64,000 nt of DNA from Clostridia bacterium. Its GTDB lineage: Bacteria; Bacillota; Clostridia; Christensenellales; Borkfalkiaceae. Of this stretch, positions 10,947-64,000 are shown one piece after another. The first letter of the stretch is position 1; every line of letters begins with the position of its first letter. Below the pieces are notes generated by a model, which did no database searches, had not been told where the DNA came from, and worked only from the letters and a program-made list of their open reading frames with translations. The position numbers and the translations under genes were made by a program. The stretch spans positions 32 to 64,031 of the forward strand of contig CAAFYG010000078.1 of NCBI GenBank assembly GCA_900767195.1. The letters are read 5' to 3'.

Positions 10947-11030
10947 ATGTCAAGAAAGCAAAAATTCGACGGCGGCACGGCAAACGAACTTGCGCGGGCG
11001 GCGGCGAAAGAGTTTTCGCCTGTTTCGTAA
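10947..11030 (+). CDS. Small basic protein, 27 aa (MSRKQKFDGGTANELARAAAKEFSPVS), hypothetical
   Basis: ATG preceded by AAGGGGAAA RBS and consensus promoter 30 nt upstream; below ORF-track size cutoff. Confidence 0.4.
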   Translation: MSRKQKFDGGTANELARAAAKEFSPVS

Positions 11031-11059
11031 CGGATTGCTGCAAACTGTTTGAAATTTTA

Positions 11060-11350
11060 ATAACTGCCTTTGATATAGCCTTCCCCCTCGGGGGAAGGTG
11101 GACAAAGCAAAGCTTTGGACGGATGAGGGGCGCAGCATTTTTATGCGCAGCACATTTTTTGATTGAAATTTTTCCCCTGAAATTTTCAATCAAGGGGCGC
11201 AGCACATTTTTGATTTTCTGAATATTTCGGAAGAAATTTCTGAAGATCAAGGGGCACAACGCCTTTCGATATATAAAAAATCAAGCGGCGAAGCCGATTT
11301 TTGACTTTCCGAATATTTCGGAAGAAATTTCCGAAAAGCAAAAGGCGCGG
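11060..11350. repeat. Mosaic palindromic intergenic repeat cluster (family member B)
   Basis: Contains 'taactgcctttgatatagccttccccctcgggggaaggtggacaaagc...ggacggatgaggggcgcagc' plus tandem 'gattttctgaatatttcggaagaaatttctgaagatcaagggg' hairpin units; near-identical copy at 60055-60250. Confidence 0.75.
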
Positions 11351-11413
11351 CTTATCAAAGAACGATAATTCATTTTCAAGCAACAAATTTTATAAGCATA
11401 AGGAGCATTTTTT

Positions 11414-19699: not shown

Positions 19700-19832
19700 G
19701 CCTTATTCCAAGGCTTCCCCTTGCTTCATTTTGCTTACCGCAAAATTCAGCAAAAATTGTCAGCCTATTTCATAGGCTTCCCCTCGGGGGGAAGCTGTCC
19801 GTGAAACGGACGGATGAGGGGCAGTAACACAT
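19700..19832. repeat. Mosaic palindromic repeat cluster (family member C)
   Basis: 'ccaaggcttccccttgcttcattttgcttaccgcaaaattcagcaaaaattgtcagcc' + 'ggcttcccctcggggggaagc' + 'gacggatgaggggcagtaac'; shares modules with loci at 22305 and 11060. Confidence 0.7.
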
Positions 19833-19860
19833 TAAGCGTAAAGCAATCAAGAGCGCACGC

Positions 19861-21700: not shown

Positions 21701-22273
21701 TTACTCTCTGCCGATCCCCTGATGGCGGCGCGTATAGAGATGGATTTTCTCGTTTAAAATTTTCATCGCCTGTTCGGGAGTAGTCACGCCGAACACTTTA
21801 TCGTCCGGCAGATTTTCGTATCGCACCACGTCGTCGAGTCTCATGCCCGCAAGTTTTTCGCTCCATCCGCCCGAATTTTCAAACGCGATCACAAGGCGGT
21901 TAAACGACCAGGCAAACGAATATTCGCAAAGCGTACCCGCGCCGCCGCCGATGCCGATCACCGCGTCCGCATTGGCAACGAGAGCGTTTCTCATCACGTC
22001 GAGTCCCGTCGGCACGGCAATATCGGCGTATTCGTTGGCGATTTCGGTATCGAACGACGGCACAAGCGCGATGGTATCGCCCTCTTTATATTTTTCGCTT
22101 GCGTGCGCGCCTTTCATCACCGCGCGCATAATGCCGCCGAGACCGCCCGATTGCACTCTATACCCGTTATCCACAAGCGCCTTGCCCGTTTCGAAGGCGA
22201 GTTTATATCTGAGCGAGCCTTCTTCCACGGCTCTGTTCCCGATCACGGAAACCACTTTTCTTCTTTCATTCAT
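21701..22273 (-). CDS. LOG/TIGR00725-family Rossmann-fold nucleotide-binding protein
   Basis: 190 aa; 'VIGIGGGAGTLCE' and PGGxGTxxE-like motifs typical of LOG/YvdD-like proteins. Confidence 0.65.
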   Translation of the reverse strand: MNERRKVVSVIGNRAVEEGSLRYKLAFETGKALVDNGYRVQSGGLGGIMRAVMKGAHASEKYKEGDTIALVPSFDTEIANEYADIAVPTGLDVMRNALVANADAVIGIGGGAGTLCEYSFAWSFNRLVIAFENSGGWSEKLAGMRLDDVVRYENLPDDKVFGVTTPEQAMKILNEKIHLYTRRHQGIGRE

Positions 22274-22304: not shown

Positions 22305-22625
22305 TCTTTCCAAGGCTTCCCCTTGCTTCATTTTGCTCAACGCAAAACTCAGCAAAAATTGTCAGCCTCTTCGTGGCTTCCCCTTGCTTCATTTTGCTCA
22401 ATGCAAAATTCAGCAAAAATTGTCAGCCACTTCGTGGCTTCCCCTCGGGGGGAGGCTCTGCCCGATAGGGCGGTGGTGAGGGGCGTAGCATATTATGCTT
22501 AGCCCATTTTTGGTTTTCTGAATATTCCGGAAGGAATTTCCGAAAATCAAGGGGCGTAGCATTTTATGCGCAGCCCATTTTTTTGATTGAAAAATTTCGA
22601 TGAATTTTTTCAATCAAAGAGCGCA
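22305..22625. repeat. Mosaic palindromic repeat cluster (family member D, largest)
   Basis: Two tandem copies of 'ggcttccccttgcttcattttgctcaaCgcaaaaCtcagcaaaaattgtcagcc', 'ggcttcccctcggggggaggc', 'ggcggtggtgaggggcgtagc', then palindromic 'gattttc...gaaaatcaagggg' units. Confidence 0.75.
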
Positions 22626-31804: not shown

Positions 31805-32100
31805 CGCCCCTTGATTTTCAAAAATTTCTTGCGAAATATTCAGAAAATCAAAAATGGGCTGCGCCCCTTGATTGAAAATTTCTGATGGAAAAATTCAATC
31901 AAAAATGGGCTACGCCCCTTGATTTTCAGAAATTTCTTGCAAAATATTCAGAAAATCAAAAATGGGCTGCGCCCCTCATCAGTCGCTTTCAGCGACAGCT
32001 TCCCCCCCGGGGGGAAGCCTATGAAATAGGCGAAGATTAACTTTTAGACGATAGTGTTACAGTCCGTAACGAAACGGGCAATGCCCGCCCCGGGGGGAAG
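31805..32100. repeat. Mosaic palindromic repeat cluster (family member E): three tandem ~55-bp hairpin units plus G/C palindromes
   Basis: 'ccccttgattttcaNaaatttcttgcNaaatattcagaaaatcaaaaatgggctgcgcccc' x3 (middle unit variant), then 'agcttcccccccggggggaagcc' and 'cccgccccggggggaagcc'. Confidence 0.75.
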
Positions 32101-32304
32101 CCTTTTTTGCAACTTCAAAACGAAATTTTTTGCAGAAATAACGTTTTGCAGCTACAAACCGATTTTCGTTGCGTATGCGCGCGAAAGACACGAAGCGCGC
32201 GTATTTTGGAGCAGGAGCGTACAGAGACGTACGTGACTGCGACAAAAGCGCAAGCGCGACAAAGTATTTCGCGATGCAGACACGACGAAAAAACGTGCGA
32301 AAAA

Positions 32305-57781: not shown

Positions 57782-58345
<564 letters not shown>

Positions 58346-58403
58346 AAAATCGGCTTTGAAAATTCAAAAGAAAAAATTTTTTAAGTAAAGGAGAGAAAAC
58401 TTT

Positions 58404-59834
58404 ATGAAACTCGTTTACCAGGTGAAAGACAAACCGCCTTTCGGAAAAACGCTTGTGTTCGCGTTGCAGCAACTGCTCGCGATTCTTGCGGCAACGATCG
58501 CCGTTCCTGCAATCGTAGGAAACGGAATGTCTCAATCTGCGGCTTTGTTTGGCGCGGGCGTGGGCACGTTTGTGTACCTGCTTTTCACGAAATTCAGAAG
58601 CCCTGTATTCTTAGGCTCGTCTTTCGCATTTTTAGGCTCGATGGCGGCGGCGTTTGCCGGCGGCGTATCGATGTCGGTGGGATATCTCGGTCTGATCATC
58701 GGCGCGGGCTTTGCGGGACTTGTCTACGTAGTCATCGCCCTGATCGTGAAAAAAGCGGGCGTAAACTGGCTGAACAAACTGATGCCGGCGGTAGTGATCG
58801 GCCCTACGGTAGCGATCATCGGTTTGTCGCTTGCGGGCAACGCGGTAAGCGATATGATGAAAGGCGGCTTGCAGGTGAATAACTCGCCCGTATGCAACAC
58901 GTACGTAGCTTTACTTTGCGCGCTCGTAACTCTCTTCACCGTGGTTGCCTGCTCGGTTTACGGCAAGAAAATGGCGAAAATGATTCCGTTCATCATCGGT
59001 ATCGTAGCCGGCTATGCGGTTGCGGCGATCTTCACGGGAATCGGCTACGCGGCGAAAGTAGACGCGCTGAAAGTAATCGATTTCACAAAGTTCAAGAATA
59101 TGCAGTGGTATCCCGATTTCGCGTTTATCGAAGCGTTCAAAGGCAATTATGTCTATGGTGCAGGCGGCTCGTTCGGCACTTACCTTCTTACGATTTTCGT
59201 AGCGTATGCGCCCGTAGCGTTCGTGGTTTTTGCGGAACACGTAGCCGATCATAAAAACCTTTCTTCGATTATCGAACACGATCTTCTCACCGATCCTGGT
59301 CTTGACAAAACGCTTCTCGGCGACGGCATAGGCTCGATCGTAGGCGCGTTCTTCGGCGGTTGCCCCAACACCACGTACGGCGAATCCGTAGGCTGCGTAG
59401 CAATTTCCGGCAACGCTTCGGTGGTAACGATTTTCACAACGGCGATTATGGCGATTGTAATTTCCTTCTTTGCTCCGTTCGTAACCTTCCTGGCTACGAT
59501 TCCCAACTGCGTAATGGGCGGCGTTTGCATGACGTTGTACGGCTTCATCGCCGTATCCGGCTTGAAGATGATTCAGAAAGTCGATCTCGAAAACAACAAA
59601 AACCTGTTCGTGGTATCCGTCATTCTTATCGCGGGTATCGGCGGTTTCACGCTGACTTTCGGAAAAGTGACGATCACTTCGATTGCGTGCGCCCTGATTC
59701 TCGGTATTCTCACCAATGTGCTTTGCTCGATCGGCGGCAAAAAAGAAGCGGAAGTCGAAGGCGTAACGGCTGAAGACGCAACGATTGCGGAATCGATGGA
59801 AACTTCCGAAAACGACGAAAACAAAGCGGAATAA
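58404..59834 (+). CDS. pyrP: Uracil permease (NCS2 family)
   Basis: 476 aa, ~12-14 TM, NCS2 signature region; pyrR-pyrP synteny as in Bacillus. Confidence 0.85.
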   Translation: MKLVYQVKDKPPFGKTLVFALQQLLAILAATIAVPAIVGNGMSQSAALFGAGVGTFVYLLFTKFRSPVFLGSSFAFLGSMAAAFAGGVSMSVGYLGLIIGAGFAGLVYVVIALIVKKAGVNWLNKLMPAVVIGPTVAIIGLSLAGNAVSDMMKGGLQVNNSPVCNTYVALLCALVTLFTVVACSVYGKKMAKMIPFIIGIVAGYAVAAIFTGIGYAAKVDALKVIDFTKFKNMQWYPDFAFIEAFKGNYVYGAGGSFGTYLLTIFVAYAPVAFVVFAEHVADHKNLSSIIEHDLLTDPGLDKTLLGDGIGSIVGAFFGGCPNTTYGESVGCVAISGNASVVTIFTTAIMAIVISFFAPFVTFLATIPNCVMGGVCMTLYGFIAVSGLKMIQKVDLENNKNLFVVSVILIAGIGGFTLTFGKVTITSIACALILGILTNVLCSIGGKKEAEVEGVTAEDATIAESMETSENDENKAE

Positions 59835-59907
59835 TTCCGAGAAATAAGTAAGGCTATGCCGCGCAGAACTTGCGCGGCATACAAGCCGAAAAAACGATAT
59901 AGAGTTT

Positions 59908-59946
59908 TACCGCCGCGGGCGATCGTCCGCGGCGGTATTTGTTTTA
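59908..59946 (+). terminator. Rho-independent terminator after pyrP
   Basis: ACCGCCGCGG-gcgatcgtc-CGCGGCGGT-ATTTGTTTT. Confidence 0.6.
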
Positions 59947-59947
59947 A

Positions 59948-60250
59948 TAATTGCCTATACTATAAGCCTTCCCCCCGGGGGGCGGGCGTCGCCCGTTTCG
60001 TAACGCACCCACAGGGTGTTTCGTAACAGACTTTTACAAACAGCTTACAATTTTAATAATTGCCTTTGATATAGCCTTCACCTCGGGGGGAAGGTGGACA
60101 AAACGAAGTTTTGGACGGATGAGGGGCGTAGCCCATTTTTGATTTTTTGAATATTTCGGAAGAAACTTCTGAAAATCAAGGGGCGCAGCTTGTTTTCCGC
60201 TAAGCCCATTTTTTTTCTGAATTTTTTTGAGAAAAAATTTCAGAAAAAAA
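59948..60250. repeat. Mosaic palindromic repeat cluster (family member F), near-duplicate of cluster at 11060
   Basis: 'taattgcctttgatatagccttcacctcggggggaaggtggacaaaacgaagttttggacggatgaggggcgtagcccatttttgatttttt gaatatttcggaagaaacttctgaaaatcaaggggcgcagc'. Confidence 0.75.
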
Positions 60251-60294
60251 CGGCTTATCGCCGCTTGTTTTTTCTCATTAAAATCATTAAAAAC

Positions 60295-60813
60295 TTATAA
60301 ATAAATCACCCGATCGCCTTTCGCTCGCAGAAACTTTTTCACGGTGTACGCCGTGCCTCCCTTTTCTTTTCGCAAAAAAGCAATCAAGGTATCCGCCGCT
60401 TCCGCAAGACGATCGTTGCGATAGCTCATACACCACCTTGTATACTCTTCGAAAAACGTTTTCGAAAGCGTGGGGTCGGCGTTGTCTTTCAGATGCATAT
60501 ACCGAGCGATTTCTTCGTCGTTCATTTTTTCGTACTGTTTTTCGTAGGGAACGTACGCAATCAGCCGTATTTGCGGATACAATTTTTTCAAAGAAAGCAC
60601 ACATTCGCCCGCGAGCATGTCAAAACCGCGCGCCATACCGCAATAAAAATCCGTCGCGCCGTTTTTTATGCAATTTTCTACCGTTTCGTACAGTTTCGCG
60701 GCGGAAAAATCGGGGTATTTTTCAATTTCTCTGTGCCCAGTAAACGCTACGCTTTTTATCGGCTTTTCCATTTGTAAAAGCTCGATTTTCAGTTGTTTTT
60801 GCTGTGTTTCCAT
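60295..60813 (-). CDS. DUF1273 (YpsA-like, SLOG superfamily) protein
   Basis: 'SVAFTGHRE' N-terminal motif and overall YpsA-like layout. Confidence 0.65.
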   Translation of the reverse strand: METQQKQLKIELLQMEKPIKSVAFTGHREIEKYPDFSAAKLYETVENCIKNGATDFYCGMARGFDMLAGECVLSLKKLYPQIRLIAYVPYEKQYEKMNDEEIARYMHLKDNADPTLSKTFFEEYTRWCMSYRNDRLAEAADTLIAFLRKEKGGTAYTVKKFLRAKGDRVIYL

Positions 60814-60827
60814 CGTTTTTTTTGCCT

Positions 60828-61526
60828 TTACAGCGGTTGTTTTCTCTCTTTTCCGTTCCCGCGCGGGTATTTCGCCGGCGTCTGATTTACTTTTTTCACC
60901 ACGGCAAGATTTCTCTCGCCGTATCCTTCGGGCAGCTCATAGGGGAAAATTTCCGTTTTCTCTCCTCCAAGCTCTTTCACGGCGCGTTTCGCTTCATCTA
61001 TTTCCGCCGTATCCGCGCTTTTATAGGCGATAAAAGCTCCGCCTTTTTTCACGAGCGGCATCGAATATTCGCACAAAACGTTCATCCGCGCCACCGCCCG
61101 TGCCACCGCAAAATCAAAATTTTCGCGGTACTTTTTCTCCCGCGCGGCGTCCTCGGAACGCATATTACAAATATTCATTCCAAAAAACCCGAGTTTATCC
61201 ACAATAAACCTTAAAAAATCGCACTTTTTCCCAACGCTTTCAAACAAGGTAAAACGCAGATCTTCCCGCAAAATTTTGAGCGGCACCGAAGGAAACCCCG
61301 CGCCCGATCCGATTTCGGCAACGCTCGCGCCTTGAAAAAACAACTCGCGCGCCGCCGCCGAATCGAGAAAATGCTTATACGTCACGTCCTTTTCTCCGGT
61401 GATCGCGGTGAGATTATATTTTTCGTTGAATTCAAGCAAATAAGCGCGGAAAGCTTCGAATTTTTCGCGATATTCCCCGCAGATCAGCCTTAAATTTTCT
61501 TCTGTATTCACAACGAATTTTTCCAT
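60828..61526 (-). CDS. rsmG: 16S rRNA (guanine527-N7)-methyltransferase RsmG (GidB)
   Basis: 'NLTAI', 'HFLDS', 'ASVAEIGSGAGFPSVPLKI' SAM-binding motifs. Confidence 0.9.
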   Translation of the reverse strand: MEKFVVNTEENLRLICGEYREKFEAFRAYLLEFNEKYNLTAITGEKDVTYKHFLDSAAARELFFQGASVAEIGSGAGFPSVPLKILREDLRFTLFESVGKKCDFLRFIVDKLGFFGMNICNMRSEDAAREKKYRENFDFAVARAVARMNVLCEYSMPLVKKGGAFIAYKSADTAEIDEAKRAVKELGGEKTEIFPYELPEGYGERNLAVVKKVNQTPAKYPRGNGKERKQPL

Positions 61527-61589
61527 ACGTCCATTATATCACAAGCCTGAAAAAAACACAAGTTTTTTTAATACCTCTCTTTATTTTCC

Positions 61590-61900
61590 TTTTTCCACAG
61601 ATTCCACATTTTATTGTTTCTGCTTTTTCCACTTATCCACATTTTCTGTGGATAACTTTTATTTTTTCATAATTATGCATTTTTTTCTTATATTTGCACG
61701 GTCAATTTTCCCACGATTTTGTTTTTCTTCCACTTATCCACATTTTTCTTCCACCTTTCTTCCACAAATTTTATTCTCTTTTCCACATTCTAAAAAAGCT
61801 TGAAAATAAAGGGATTTTTCGCGTTTTTTTTCTCTTATCCACAATTCCACTCCGCCTAATATTATTACTAATATTCGATATGTAATAACAATCAACTGCA
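61590..61900. other. oriC-like DnaA-box cluster plus AT-rich unwinding element
   Basis: Perfect TTATCCACA at 61633-61641 (+), 61647-61655 (-), 61734-61742 (+), 61835-61843 (+); one-mismatch boxes at 61591, 61779; AT-rich 61858-61900. Confidence 0.75.
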
Positions 61901-62016
61901 CGGAAAGAGCCGCAAATTTTTTGGGGATCTAAGAAAAATTTTTTCGTCCGCGCAGATCCTATCGGAAAGGGAAAAACGAAAATCAAAAGAAATTTTTTTA
62001 TATAAAAGATTTTTGC

Positions 62017-62045
62017 TTGCAAAAATACACGGAATATGGTACAAT
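62017..62045 (+). promoter_or_regulatory. dnaN promoter TTGCAA-17-TGgTACAAT (extended -10) with ~120-nt leader
   Basis: ttgcaaaaatacacggaatatggtacaat. Confidence 0.45.
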
Positions 62046-62169
62046 GTACGGGTGAGAATAAGGCTTTTTCTCTGTTTTGTTATCATTTTCTTCTTGCCGC
62101 GGTAAAGCGGAAAGAAACCGGGTATACACAGAAAAAAGAAAAGCCGTTTCAAGGGAGGTTTAGCAAGCT

Positions 62170-63270
62170 ATGAAATTCGTATGCGATTCCATCGATTTAT
62201 CTTACGCGGCAGGCACCGTGGTGAAAGCCTGCGCCGTGAGAACTCTCACGCCCGTGCTTGAATGTATCAGAATGCAGGTGAAAAACGACGGCGTTACGCT
62301 TTCCGCTTACGACGGCGAACTTTCGATCGAAAAAAGCTTTAAAGCAGACGTTCTGGAAGAAGGCGAAGCATGCGTGAACGGCAGACTTTTCACCGATTTT
62401 ATCGGCAAAATCGGCAATACGCAGATCACCGTAGGCACGGAAGAGCAAGGTCTTGAAATTCGCTACGACGATTCGCGTTCGTTTATGCAGGTGCTTCCCG
62501 CCGACGAATTTCCTCGCCTCGACTGCGGCGAAAGTATCGGCTCGTTCGAAGTGGAAGAAGGCAAATTCAAAAATCTCGTGGCGCGCAGTATTTTTTGTTG
62601 CGCGTCCGATGATTCCCGCCCTATTTTAAAGGGCTGTCTTTTAGAAACGGAAGGCGGCATGCTCCGCGCTTCCGCGCTCGACGGCTACCGTATGGCCACC
62701 ACCGAATGTGAAATCGCCGGCGGCGACGACGGCAAAAAAATCGTATGCCCGGCGCGTACGCTCGGCGAAATTTCAAGAATGCTCGCGGGGGCGGATAAGC
62801 TTTTAAAAGTAGAATTTTCGGCGAACCATCTGCGCGTCGTCGTAGACGAAACCACGCTGATTTCTCGCTTGTATACGGGCGAATTCGTAAAGCGCGAGAA
62901 TATTTTCCCGCCTTCATTCACCACGGAAGTCACTTTGAAGCGCACGGAACTTATCGAGAGCGTAGAGCGCGCGAGCGTTCTTATCCGCGGCGAGAAAAAC
63001 AACCTGATCATTATGGAAGTGAAAGGCGGCGCGGTGTACGTAACGGCAAATTCCGAAATCGGCAACGTGGCGGAAAAGGTGAACGCCGTGCTTGAAGGCA
63101 AAGAAATCCGCATCGCCATGAACGGAAAATACGTGCTTGACGCTTTAAAAGCGCTCGACGAAGAAGAGATCGTGATGTATATGAATACGCCGATCGCGCC
63201 GTTCGTTCTGAAAAATAAAAAAAATAAATACGGGGCATATCTCATTTTACCTGTGAGAACAACCGCATAA
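62170..63270 (+). CDS. dnaN: DNA polymerase III subunit beta (sliding clamp)
   Basis: 366 aa, three-domain clamp; 'ARTLGEISRML', C-terminal 'LILPVR'; AGGGAGG RBS. Confidence 0.95.
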   Translation: MKFVCDSIDLSYAAGTVVKACAVRTLTPVLECIRMQVKNDGVTLSAYDGELSIEKSFKADVLEEGEACVNGRLFTDFIGKIGNTQITVGTEEQGLEIRYDDSRSFMQVLPADEFPRLDCGESIGSFEVEEGKFKNLVARSIFCCASDDSRPILKGCLLETEGGMLRASALDGYRMATTECEIAGGDDGKKIVCPARTLGEISRMLAGADKLLKVEFSANHLRVVVDETTLISRLYTGEFVKRENIFPPSFTTEVTLKRTELIESVERASVLIRGEKNNLIIMEVKGGAVYVTANSEIGNVAEKVNAVLEGKEIRIAMNGKYVLDALKALDEEEIVMYMNTPIAPFVLKNKKNKYGAYLILPVRTTA

Positions 63271-63274
63271 ACGC

Positions 63275-63303
63275 TTGACGAGGCGAGCCGTTTTGTGTAT
63301 AAT
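63275..63303 (+). promoter_or_regulatory. rpmH promoter TTGACG-17-TATAAT
   Basis: ttgacgaggcgagccgttttgtgtataat. Confidence 0.5.
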
Positions 63304-63383
63304 AAACGGGATAGTCGCTTTCGGGCGCAAAAAAACGATAAAAATTCGATAAGAGATCTTAAAGATCGTAAGGAGAAACAATC

Positions 63384-63518
63384 ATGAAAAGAACGTACCA
63401 ACCCAAGAAAAGACAGAGAAGCAAAGTACACGGATTCAGAGAAAGAATGTCTACGAAAGGCGGAAGAAATGTTTTGAAGAGAAGAAGAAACAAGGGAAGA
63501 AAGCAGCTTTCCAAGTAA
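63384..63518 (+). CDS. rpmH: 50S ribosomal protein L34
   Basis: [44 protein letters not shown]; AAGGAGAAACAATC RBS. Confidence 0.95.
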
Positions 63519-63705
63519 TCTTTGCGTGAAAAAAAGCGGCGTGCCGCGATAAAAAACGCGTTTCAAAAAGCATTTCCGCGCTGAAAAAAGCGGAAAAAAA
63601 GCCGCATTTTTGCCGTTTTTCGGCGTATGCGGCTGTTCGTTTTATTGATAAACGGCGGAATCCGGCGAAAAATCGCGGCGGAACGCACGAAAAGCGGGTA
63701 GAAAG

Positions 63706-64000
63706 GTGGAGTATAAAAGGCTGAAAAAACAAACGGAAATACAGCAGCTTTTCAGAAACGGAAAGCGCGCGTTTTCGGGCAGTCTTACGCTTTTGTATCT
63801 CCCGGCGGAAGAACATTTTTTCGCGGTATCCGTGGGAAAGAAGCACGGAAAAAGCGTACAGAGAAACAGGATCAAGCGGCTTTTGCGCGAAGCGTACCGG
63901 CTGAATATCAAAAATCTGCGCGGCACGTATAAAATCGTGGCTTTACCGAAGGTAAAAGACGAGTATTCTTTTTCCGCGTTCGATAAAGACGTGAAAGAAA
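63706..64000 (+). CDS. rnpA: Ribonuclease P protein component (partial, continues beyond window)
   Basis: GTG start; 'RLKKQTEIQQLFRNGKRAFSGSLTLLY...NRIKRLLREAYRL' RnpA signature. Confidence 0.8.
   Translation, partial: MEYKRLKKQTEIQQLFRNGKRAFSGSLTLLYLPAEEHFFAVSVGKKHGKSVQRNRIKRLLREAYRLNIKNLRGTYKIVALPKVKDEYSFSAFDKDVKE

Follow-up and report, generated by a model that had tools for sequence, protein, structure and literature searches.

Background

In the canonical Firmicute origin of replication, genes and origin elements follow the order rnpA-rpmH | oriC1 | dnaA | oriC2 | dnaN, and this context is treated as conserved across Firmicutes. The working model for Bacillus subtilis and Clostridioides difficile is a bipartite origin in which dnaA is looped out. 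Here we describe the spacer between rsmG and dnaN in a stretch of 64,000 nucleotides from a Clostridia bacterium (contig CAAFYG010000078.1, the whole stretch being referred to as the window). The spacer is 643 bp long (61527–62169) and has a GC content of 32.8%, compared with ~50% for the window. A predicted unwinding module in the spacer directly upstream of dnaN, which is a canonical Firmicute trait, is kept at this locus. Whereas the origins of B. subtilis and C. difficile are bipartite, with dnaA between two clusters of DnaA boxes, a single spacer without dnaA was found here. It was also observed, as an earlier reading made from the sequence alone had stated, that no dnaA lies upstream of dnaN and that rpmH-rnpA stand behind dnaN in the same direction.

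The basal unwinding system (BUS) was defined for B. subtilis and has been searched for across bacteria. By its rules, a DnaA box with at most two mismatches is followed by a spacer of at most 16 nt, which may hold a weaker box and a GC cluster, and then by at least three DnaA-trios of the form NAN. The length of the BUS spacer peaks at 10–13 nt. In the BUS model, the boxes are recognised by domain IV of DnaA and the trios by domain III.

Based on the sequence elements, their uniqueness and conservation, the clade-wide gene order and a switch in strand asymmetry, it is very probable that the rsmG–dnaN spacer is the chromosomal origin (oriC), a monopartite and DnaA-dependent one of the Firmicute BUS type, to which dnaA is not linked. 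The steps of initiation proposed below were modelled on those of B. subtilis and C. difficile. In the literature searched, we found no description of this arrangement for Christensenellales-like Clostridia, or of origins in Christensenellales, Scatosoma or Borkfalkia.

Predicted unwinding module in the rsmG–dnaN spacer

The predicted module is anchored by a perfect DnaA box at 61835..61843 on the plus strand, the proximal box of the BUS. A degenerate second box, AATTCCACT (61843..61851, plus strand), abuts it and has a conserved TCCAC core; read directly after the perfect box, the sequence is ATTCCACT, which belongs to this degenerate box, and then CCGCC, a GC cluster at 61852..61856 (plus strand) between the boxes and the trios. 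Six DnaA-trios (TAA TAT TAT TAC TAA TAT; 61857..61874, plus strand) start 13 nt after the perfect box and lie 296 bp upstream of the dnaN start codon. From its position at and after the trios, a DNA unwinding element (DUE) was predicted at 61857..61899, and the GC content of 61860–61899 is 23%. By the rules given above the module is a BUS, with a perfect box, a spacer of 13 nt and six trios of the form TAN. The experimentally mapped trio sequence of C. difficile oriC2, CACCTACTACTATTACTACTATGA, which lies next to a DnaA-dependent melting site, is nearly the same string as that found here.

The module was found to be unique. The BUS pattern occurs once in 73 kb of sequence of the window species, compared with 0–0.05 expected occurrences, and a stricter pattern (box with at most one mismatch, at least five TAN trios) also occurs once in the 73 kb, compared with none in 100 shuffles. 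Among 84 non-redundant species loci, a relaxed BUS pattern matches exactly once in 69, and for 66 of these 69 single matches the distance to the rsmG 5′ end is no more than 900 bp. The BUS stands beside rsmG even in loci such as L041, where the rsmG block is 5 kb away from dnaN. In the largest subclade, ypsA separates the module from dnaN; the module thus travels with rsmG and not strictly with dnaN.

The spacers of 10 species, whose dnaN identities range from 61 to 100%, were aligned, and the mean column identity was 46%. The T and the A of each of the six trios are invariant in these species, and several boxes, as well as the TCCAC of both BUS boxes, vary little or not at all.

DnaA boxes in the spacer and in rsmG

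By motif search, eight boxes with at most two mismatches were found between 61591 and 61843, four of which are perfect copies of TTATCCACA. From left to right, these are a one-mismatch box TTTTCCACA (61591..61599, plus strand), a two-mismatch box at 61625, a perfect box (61633..61641, plus strand) that forms the left arm of the palindrome TTATCCACAttttcTGTGGATAA, a perfect box in inverted orientation (61647..61655, minus strand), a perfect box preceded by a TTCCAC half-site (61734..61742, plus strand), a two-mismatch box TCTTCCACA (61758..61766, plus strand), a second one-mismatch box TTTTCCACA (61779..61787, plus strand) and the perfect box that anchors the unwinding module. The sequence TGTGGATAAC at 61647–61656 is invariant across the 10 aligned species. 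The sequence-only reading had reported at least four perfect boxes, at least two one-mismatch boxes and an AT-rich tract in 643 bp; the count was confirmed to be four and two, and the tract was found as well. An intergenic cluster of at least three DnaA boxes with a mean spacing below 100 bp was taken as the box criterion for oriC, and the spacer holds such a cluster.

The enrichment of boxes was far above expectation. The window contains seven perfect boxes, compared with 0.18 expected, and none of 100 shuffled sequences reached seven. The spacer makes up 1% of the sequence and contains 8 of the 29 TCCACA cores of the window. Over 88 loci, the 1.5 kb upstream of dnaN contain 1.36 perfect boxes per kb, compared with 0.15 per kb elsewhere.

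Another perfect box was located by the same search inside the rsmG frame (61195..61203, plus strand), where it is read as xT-GTG-GAT-AAx. The same codons carry it in 56 of 76 species, compared with 3.4% predicted from codon usage and the peptide x-V-D-[K/N]. The flanking residues vary (V/I/A and K/N) while the nine bases stay constant; selection thus acts on the DNA motif in rsmG. As judged from these codons, the rsmG-internal box is maintained by synonymous-site constraint, and it provides a clean case of an origin element that overlaps a coding sequence.

Between the two groups of boxes lies a conserved AT-rich tract at 61656..61700 with a GC content of 17–23% (17% at 61660–61699). Within it, a weak match to a promoter was found (TTCATA, 17 nt, TATATT). 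The tract could be a remnant of a former dnaA promoter or of oriC1; alternatively, it could be another site of unwinding or could be bound by an accessory protein.

Gene order across the clade

Contigs of relatives, 36 kb to 0.8 Mb long and with dnaN 87%, 64% and 61% identical to that of the window, showed the same core, ypsA-rsmG | dnaN-rpmH-rnpA(-yidD)-yidC-jag. A scan of GTDB with one genome per species yielded 80 loci with dnaN 50–98% identical and ~10 kb of sequence on each side of dnaN. All of them come from metagenome-assembled genomes named Candidatus Scatosoma, Candidatus Gallimonas, uncultured Clostridia or Catabacter, and dnaN-rpmH-rnpA lie on one strand in every one of the 80; no DnaA homologue was found in the ~10-kb flanks of any of them. 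When the most divergent dnaN was used for a further search, more groups with the same core were obtained, with parB-parA-ftsH on the left; they include Candidatus Coproplasma, which GTDB places in Christensenellales/Borkfalkiaceae and whose genomes are 1.4–1.7 Mb. In nearly all loci of the clade (~85 species), a YpsA-like gene adjoins rsmG or dnaN. It is placed 3′ of rsmG in the subclade of the window and between oriC and dnaN in the largest subclade.

The ~6-kb core block (ypsA-rsmG | dnaN...jag) was found inverted in place between two loci (L005 and L006). Only an origin located within the block would keep its genes co-directional with replication in both orientations.

Jointly with the assignment of oriC to the spacer, it appears highly likely that the order rsmG<-|oriC|->dnaN-rpmH-rnpA with unlinked dnaA is ancestral and fixed in a large clade of uncultured gut Clostridia, rather than a rearrangement of one genome or an artefact. 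The sequence-only reading had proposed a rearrangement or a relocation of dnaA. Relocation is still suggested by the conserved boxes and trios, but the order is no one-off event: it is old and fixed throughout the clade.

Several other features of the flanks were observed. On whichever flank it stands, the OKR_DC-tmk-holB-PSP1 block is always oriented toward the core. In the Scatosoma-like subclade, a second cluster with 4–8 perfect TTATCCACA boxes was found in a convergent cvpA->|<-gerAC spacer ~7 kb downstream of dnaN (for example, L041:17546–17964, L034:1447–1916 and L055:3511–3926); in the window species, no second box cluster was found within +11 kb. The gerA/box-cluster block has swapped sides in L055 and L059 relative to L041; this swap and the inversion of the core block are small inversions centred on the origin. 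The second cluster is without DnaA-trios, moves with gerAC in rearranged loci and lies off the switch in strand asymmetry described below. Having no trios and lying off this switch, it was rejected as an origin; it resembles a cluster that titrates DnaA or has a regulatory role.

Strand asymmetry

The raw GC skew was negative over 1–56 kb and positive from dnaN onwards, and in the window genome it follows gene orientation. Because of this dependence, an orientation-controlled skew was used. The GC skew at third codon positions (GC3 skew) was calculated on the coding strand for predicted genes, split by orientation and by side and with the core genes excluded (718 genes from ~84 species). On the left flank, GC3 skew was −0.122 ± 0.011 for plus-strand genes and −0.036 ± 0.013 for minus-strand genes. 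On the right flank, the corresponding values were −0.020 ± 0.014 and −0.126 ± 0.011. The replication-associated term was estimated to be about +0.04 to +0.05 for the leading strand on both flanks, the strand being the opposite one on the other side.

For the subclade of the window, the switch point fitted best at 0 kb, in the rsmG|dnaN spacer; for the others it fitted best at −1 kb, in the rsmG|ypsA spacer. The spacers at which the asymmetry switches are the same spacers that bear the BUS, and the fit was poor at +7 kb. In the window species, the left 62 kb behaved as expected, with +0.052 for minus-strand genes and −0.116 for plus-strand genes. The description of the spacer as a 'textbook oriC' in the sequence-only reading holds, and it is strengthened by the module of box, GC cluster, trios and AT-rich DNA and by the clade-level strand switch at the spacer.

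Alternative explanations and the search for dnaA

Some observations weigh against an origin in the spacer with unlinked dnaA. In the window species alone, the right flank contains only 10 genes and is too short to show a skew switch. In the GC3 test, gene family partly confounds the effect of orientation relative to the core, and the same gene blocks tend to keep the same direction relative to the core across species. The coding DNA near the origin is directed more often toward it than away from it: 236 vs 169 kb on the left and 177 vs 136 kb on the right, as counted in ~84 species loci from −11 to −2.5 kb and from +5.5 to +11 kb from dnaN. This origin-ward bias is the opposite of the usual co-orientation in Firmicutes. 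By tblastn and hmmsearch, dnaA was not found in 90 loci comprising 1.69 Mb of origin-proximal DNA from ~85 species. For the window species the range covered was −72 to +11 kb, again without a dnaA; the sequence-only reading had envisaged that a dnaA gene just outside the window might restore the canonical arrangement. Since dnaA was not found, the initiator is inferred and not seen.

In the window itself, dnaA was not detected by tblastn with E. coli DnaA or by hmmsearch with a profile from E. coli and B. subtilis. The queries were checked: E. coli DnaA scored 252 bits on Pfam Bac_DnaA, and B. subtilis DnaA was 86% identical to Priestia DnaA. In a positive control, tblastn with E. coli DnaA recovered DnaA from loci of Monoglobus (2e-94) and Subdoligranulum (1e-85). 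A homologue search with Monoglobus DnaA (from PLSDB) was saturated by Monoglobus variants and gave no dnaA of the clade, and a search of DnaA representatives yielded 150 of 8255, none assignable to the clade. A dnaA remnant in the spacer was also considered and rejected; no similarity to an open reading frame was found in the 643 bp.

The explanation that survives best besides an origin in the spacer is that the box cluster is a secondary DnaA site, either for control of the dnaN promoter or for titration, like datA or the DnaA-box clusters (DBCs) of B. subtilis, and that the true oriC lies beside the unseen dnaA. It would account for the lack of dnaA at the locus, and box clusters without origin function do exist in the clade, as in the cvpA/gerAC spacer of the Scatosoma-like subclade. 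The right flank of the window species, which by itself gives no clear skew switch, and the flanking tmk-holB-PSP1 block, which points toward the locus, also speak for it. However, titration clusters are without trios, whereas the spacer has a complete unwinding module that is unique in its locus and conserved at the level of single bases, and the GC3 skew of the clade switches at the spacer and not at the +7 kb cluster. As to control of dnaN, a sigma-A-type promoter was predicted at 62017..62045 on the plus strand (TTGCAA, 17 nt, TG-n-TACAAT, with an extended −10). Its −35 and −10 blocks are conserved in the 10 species and the surrounding spacer is not; it lies ~150 bp beyond the trios, with variable sequence between it and the boxes. 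A secondary site is therefore improbable, though it keeps a small chance.

It is less probable still, to the point of being a slight chance, that the clade (at least ~85 species of free-living gut Clostridia) lost dnaA, and that another, unrecognised protein reads the boxes and trios or that replication is independent of DnaA, as in some cyanobacteria and endosymbionts. The negative searches in the origin-proximal sequence, and the failure of the wider searches to retrieve a dnaA of the clade, are what would be expected in that case. Yet the dnaA search covered only ±10 kb around dnaN, and the failure to find the gene reflects this range. Moreover, consensus boxes and trios with invariant T and A are under strong purifying selection, for the boxes even at synonymous sites of rsmG, whereas dnaN is only 50–60% identical. 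Because boxes and trios are both constrained in this way while dnaN has diverged so far, dnaA is almost certainly encoded elsewhere in the genome, as far as can be judged from these sites.

A chimera or misjoin at 61.5–63.5 kb that removed dnaA, a possibility raised by the sequence-only reading and favoured only by the unusual gene order and by a source that is probably a metagenome assembly, was rejected as having practically no chance, because an independent 19-kb ENA contig from another sample covers 58112–64000 with the same junction and 8 mismatches in 5889 bp (99.86% identity), and the order is common to the 80 species-level genomes and several contigs of 0.2–1 Mb, ~85 species in all.

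Proposed steps of initiation

If the rsmG–dnaN spacer is oriC, initiation would proceed as follows. DnaA made from a gene elsewhere in the genome would bind the high-affinity boxes at 61591–61843 and the rsmG box at 61195. From the tandem boxes at 61835–61851, an oligomer of ATP-DnaA would grow across CCGCC and engage the top strand at the six TAN trios (61857–61874), and it would stretch and open the AT-rich tract that begins with the trios, to about 61900. The helicase would then be loaded at the opened tract, and two forks would depart. The leftward fork would be co-directional with rsmG-ypsA, and the rightward fork with dnaN-rpmH-rnpA-yidD-yidC-jag.

Genes, promoters and repeats of the locus

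The gene assignments were based on profile matches. On the left, rsmG (60828..61526, minus strand), which encodes the 16S rRNA m7G527 methyltransferase, scored 143 bits with Pfam GidB and 155 bits with the TIGR00138 equivalog (cut-off 99.5), and it is transcribed away from the origin. It is followed by the ypsA-like gene of the SLOG family (60295..60813, minus strand; Pfam PF06908). On the right, dnaN (62170..63270, plus strand), the gene of the sliding clamp, has the three Pfam clamp domains and scored 233 bits with the TIGR00663 equivalog (cut-off 137.65). The next genes on the plus strand are rpmH (63384..63518), encoding ribosomal protein L34, which was identified by Pfam and passed the NCBIfam equivalog cut-off, and rnpA (63706..64000), encoding the RNase P protein, which was identified by Pfam and is cut by the end of the window. 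Beyond this end, the 19-kb ENA contig continues from rnpA into yidD-yidC-jag and then into seven genes on the minus strand. The window species is widespread, one protein of the window being indexed in 209 blocks of the contig collection.

An rpmH promoter was predicted at 63275..63303 on the plus strand (TTGACG, 17 nt, TATAAT; 11 of 12 matches). With the dnaN promoter given above, each of the two genes has its own predicted sigma-A-type promoter. A scan of 59.5–64 kb with Rfam gave no match above noise, and a tRNA scan of the window found none.

A second gene of the SLOG family (LDcluster4) was observed at 21701–22273, with a lone perfect DnaA box (22167) inside it. Short intergenic repeats are dispersed in the window, with units of ~65–190 bp that are 79–92% identical and sometimes tandem. 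Copies were located at ~84–224, 11021–11353, 19772–19833, 22497–22584, 31805–31984, 32062–32104 and 59942–60250 of the window, and at L001:14094–14284. The copy at 59.9–60.25 kb had no Rfam match, and blastn of the loci of other species found no copies.

Significance

The predicted machinery is that of a standard DnaA/BUS origin, and the novelty of the locus lies in its gene arrangement. If confirmed, it would mean that the bipartite layout and the linkage of dnaA to oriC are dispensable in Firmicutes, and likewise the autoregulatory and gene-dosage coupling that comes with this linkage. In practice, rsmG, BUS and dnaN would together be a reliable anchor for origin-finding and for growth-rate tools that use peak-to-trough ratios, for which the rule 'start at dnaA' would be wrong in these genomes. 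The value of the locus is that of a comparative case, with no new mechanism unless dnaA proves to be missing.

Comparison with known systems

In its unwinding elements, the spacer resembles B. subtilis incC and C. difficile oriC2, which share with it TTATCCACA boxes and the succession of tandem boxes, GC cluster, TAN/TAC trios and AT-rich DUE upstream of dnaN. The gene context differs. In B. subtilis and C. difficile, rpmH-rnpA lie beyond the origin in divergent orientation. Here they come after dnaN and share its strand, and the divergent gene next to the origin is rsmG. The spacer also shares dense, high-affinity, intergenic boxes with datA of E. coli and the DBCs of B. subtilis. These are without trios or DUE and lie off the strand switch, a description that fits the cvpA/gerAC cluster of the relatives and not the rsmG|dnaN spacer.

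The sequence-only reading had stated that nearly all bacteria have the order rnpA-rpmH | dnaA-dnaN. This rule was overstated: in cyanobacteria, in E. coli and in Monoglobus pectinilyticus, dnaA is unlinked from dnaN, from oriC or from both. In cyanobacteria, oriC likewise lies directly upstream of dnaN, dnaA has been translocated, and the arrangement is a phylum- or clade-wide rule; in the present clade, none of 88+ loci contains dnaA, and dnaN is the right neighbour of the origin in the subclade of the window. The two cases differ in phylum and in the box motif, which is TTTTCCACA in cyanobacteria, and no cyanobacterial case of rpmH-rnpA behind dnaN has been described. Replication without DnaA occurs in some cyanobacteria, whereas the trios found here argue for DnaA.

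In E. coli, oriC lies between gidA and mioC. The origins of E. coli and other gammaproteobacteria stand beside gidA(mnmG)-gidB(rsmG) and away from dnaA, as the present one would. The E. coli origin has a weak BUS score, however, and dnaN stays with dnaA there. At the present locus, dnaN is kept with oriC instead, and rsmG has no mnmG/mnmE as neighbours.

A further case was found in Monoglobus pectinilyticus (Clostridia, Monoglobales), in which dnaA and dnaN are also unlinked. The records NZ_OY725739.1 and NZ_OY725740.1 (PLSDB; L094 and L095) are chromosome fragments deposited as plasmids, and they carry dnaA and dnaN separately, one on each record. No perfect TTATCCACA box was found near dnaA or dnaN in these records. 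Monoglobus dnaN stands in the context response regulator<-|dnaN-recF-remB-gyrB. Its dnaA has rpmH-rnpA-yidD-yidC-jag as divergent neighbours and is itself followed by mnmE-dnaD-ATPase, a split nearly complementary to that of the present clade. Because Monoglobus also unlinks dnaA and dnaN, the conserved context of Firmicute origins has more than one exception.

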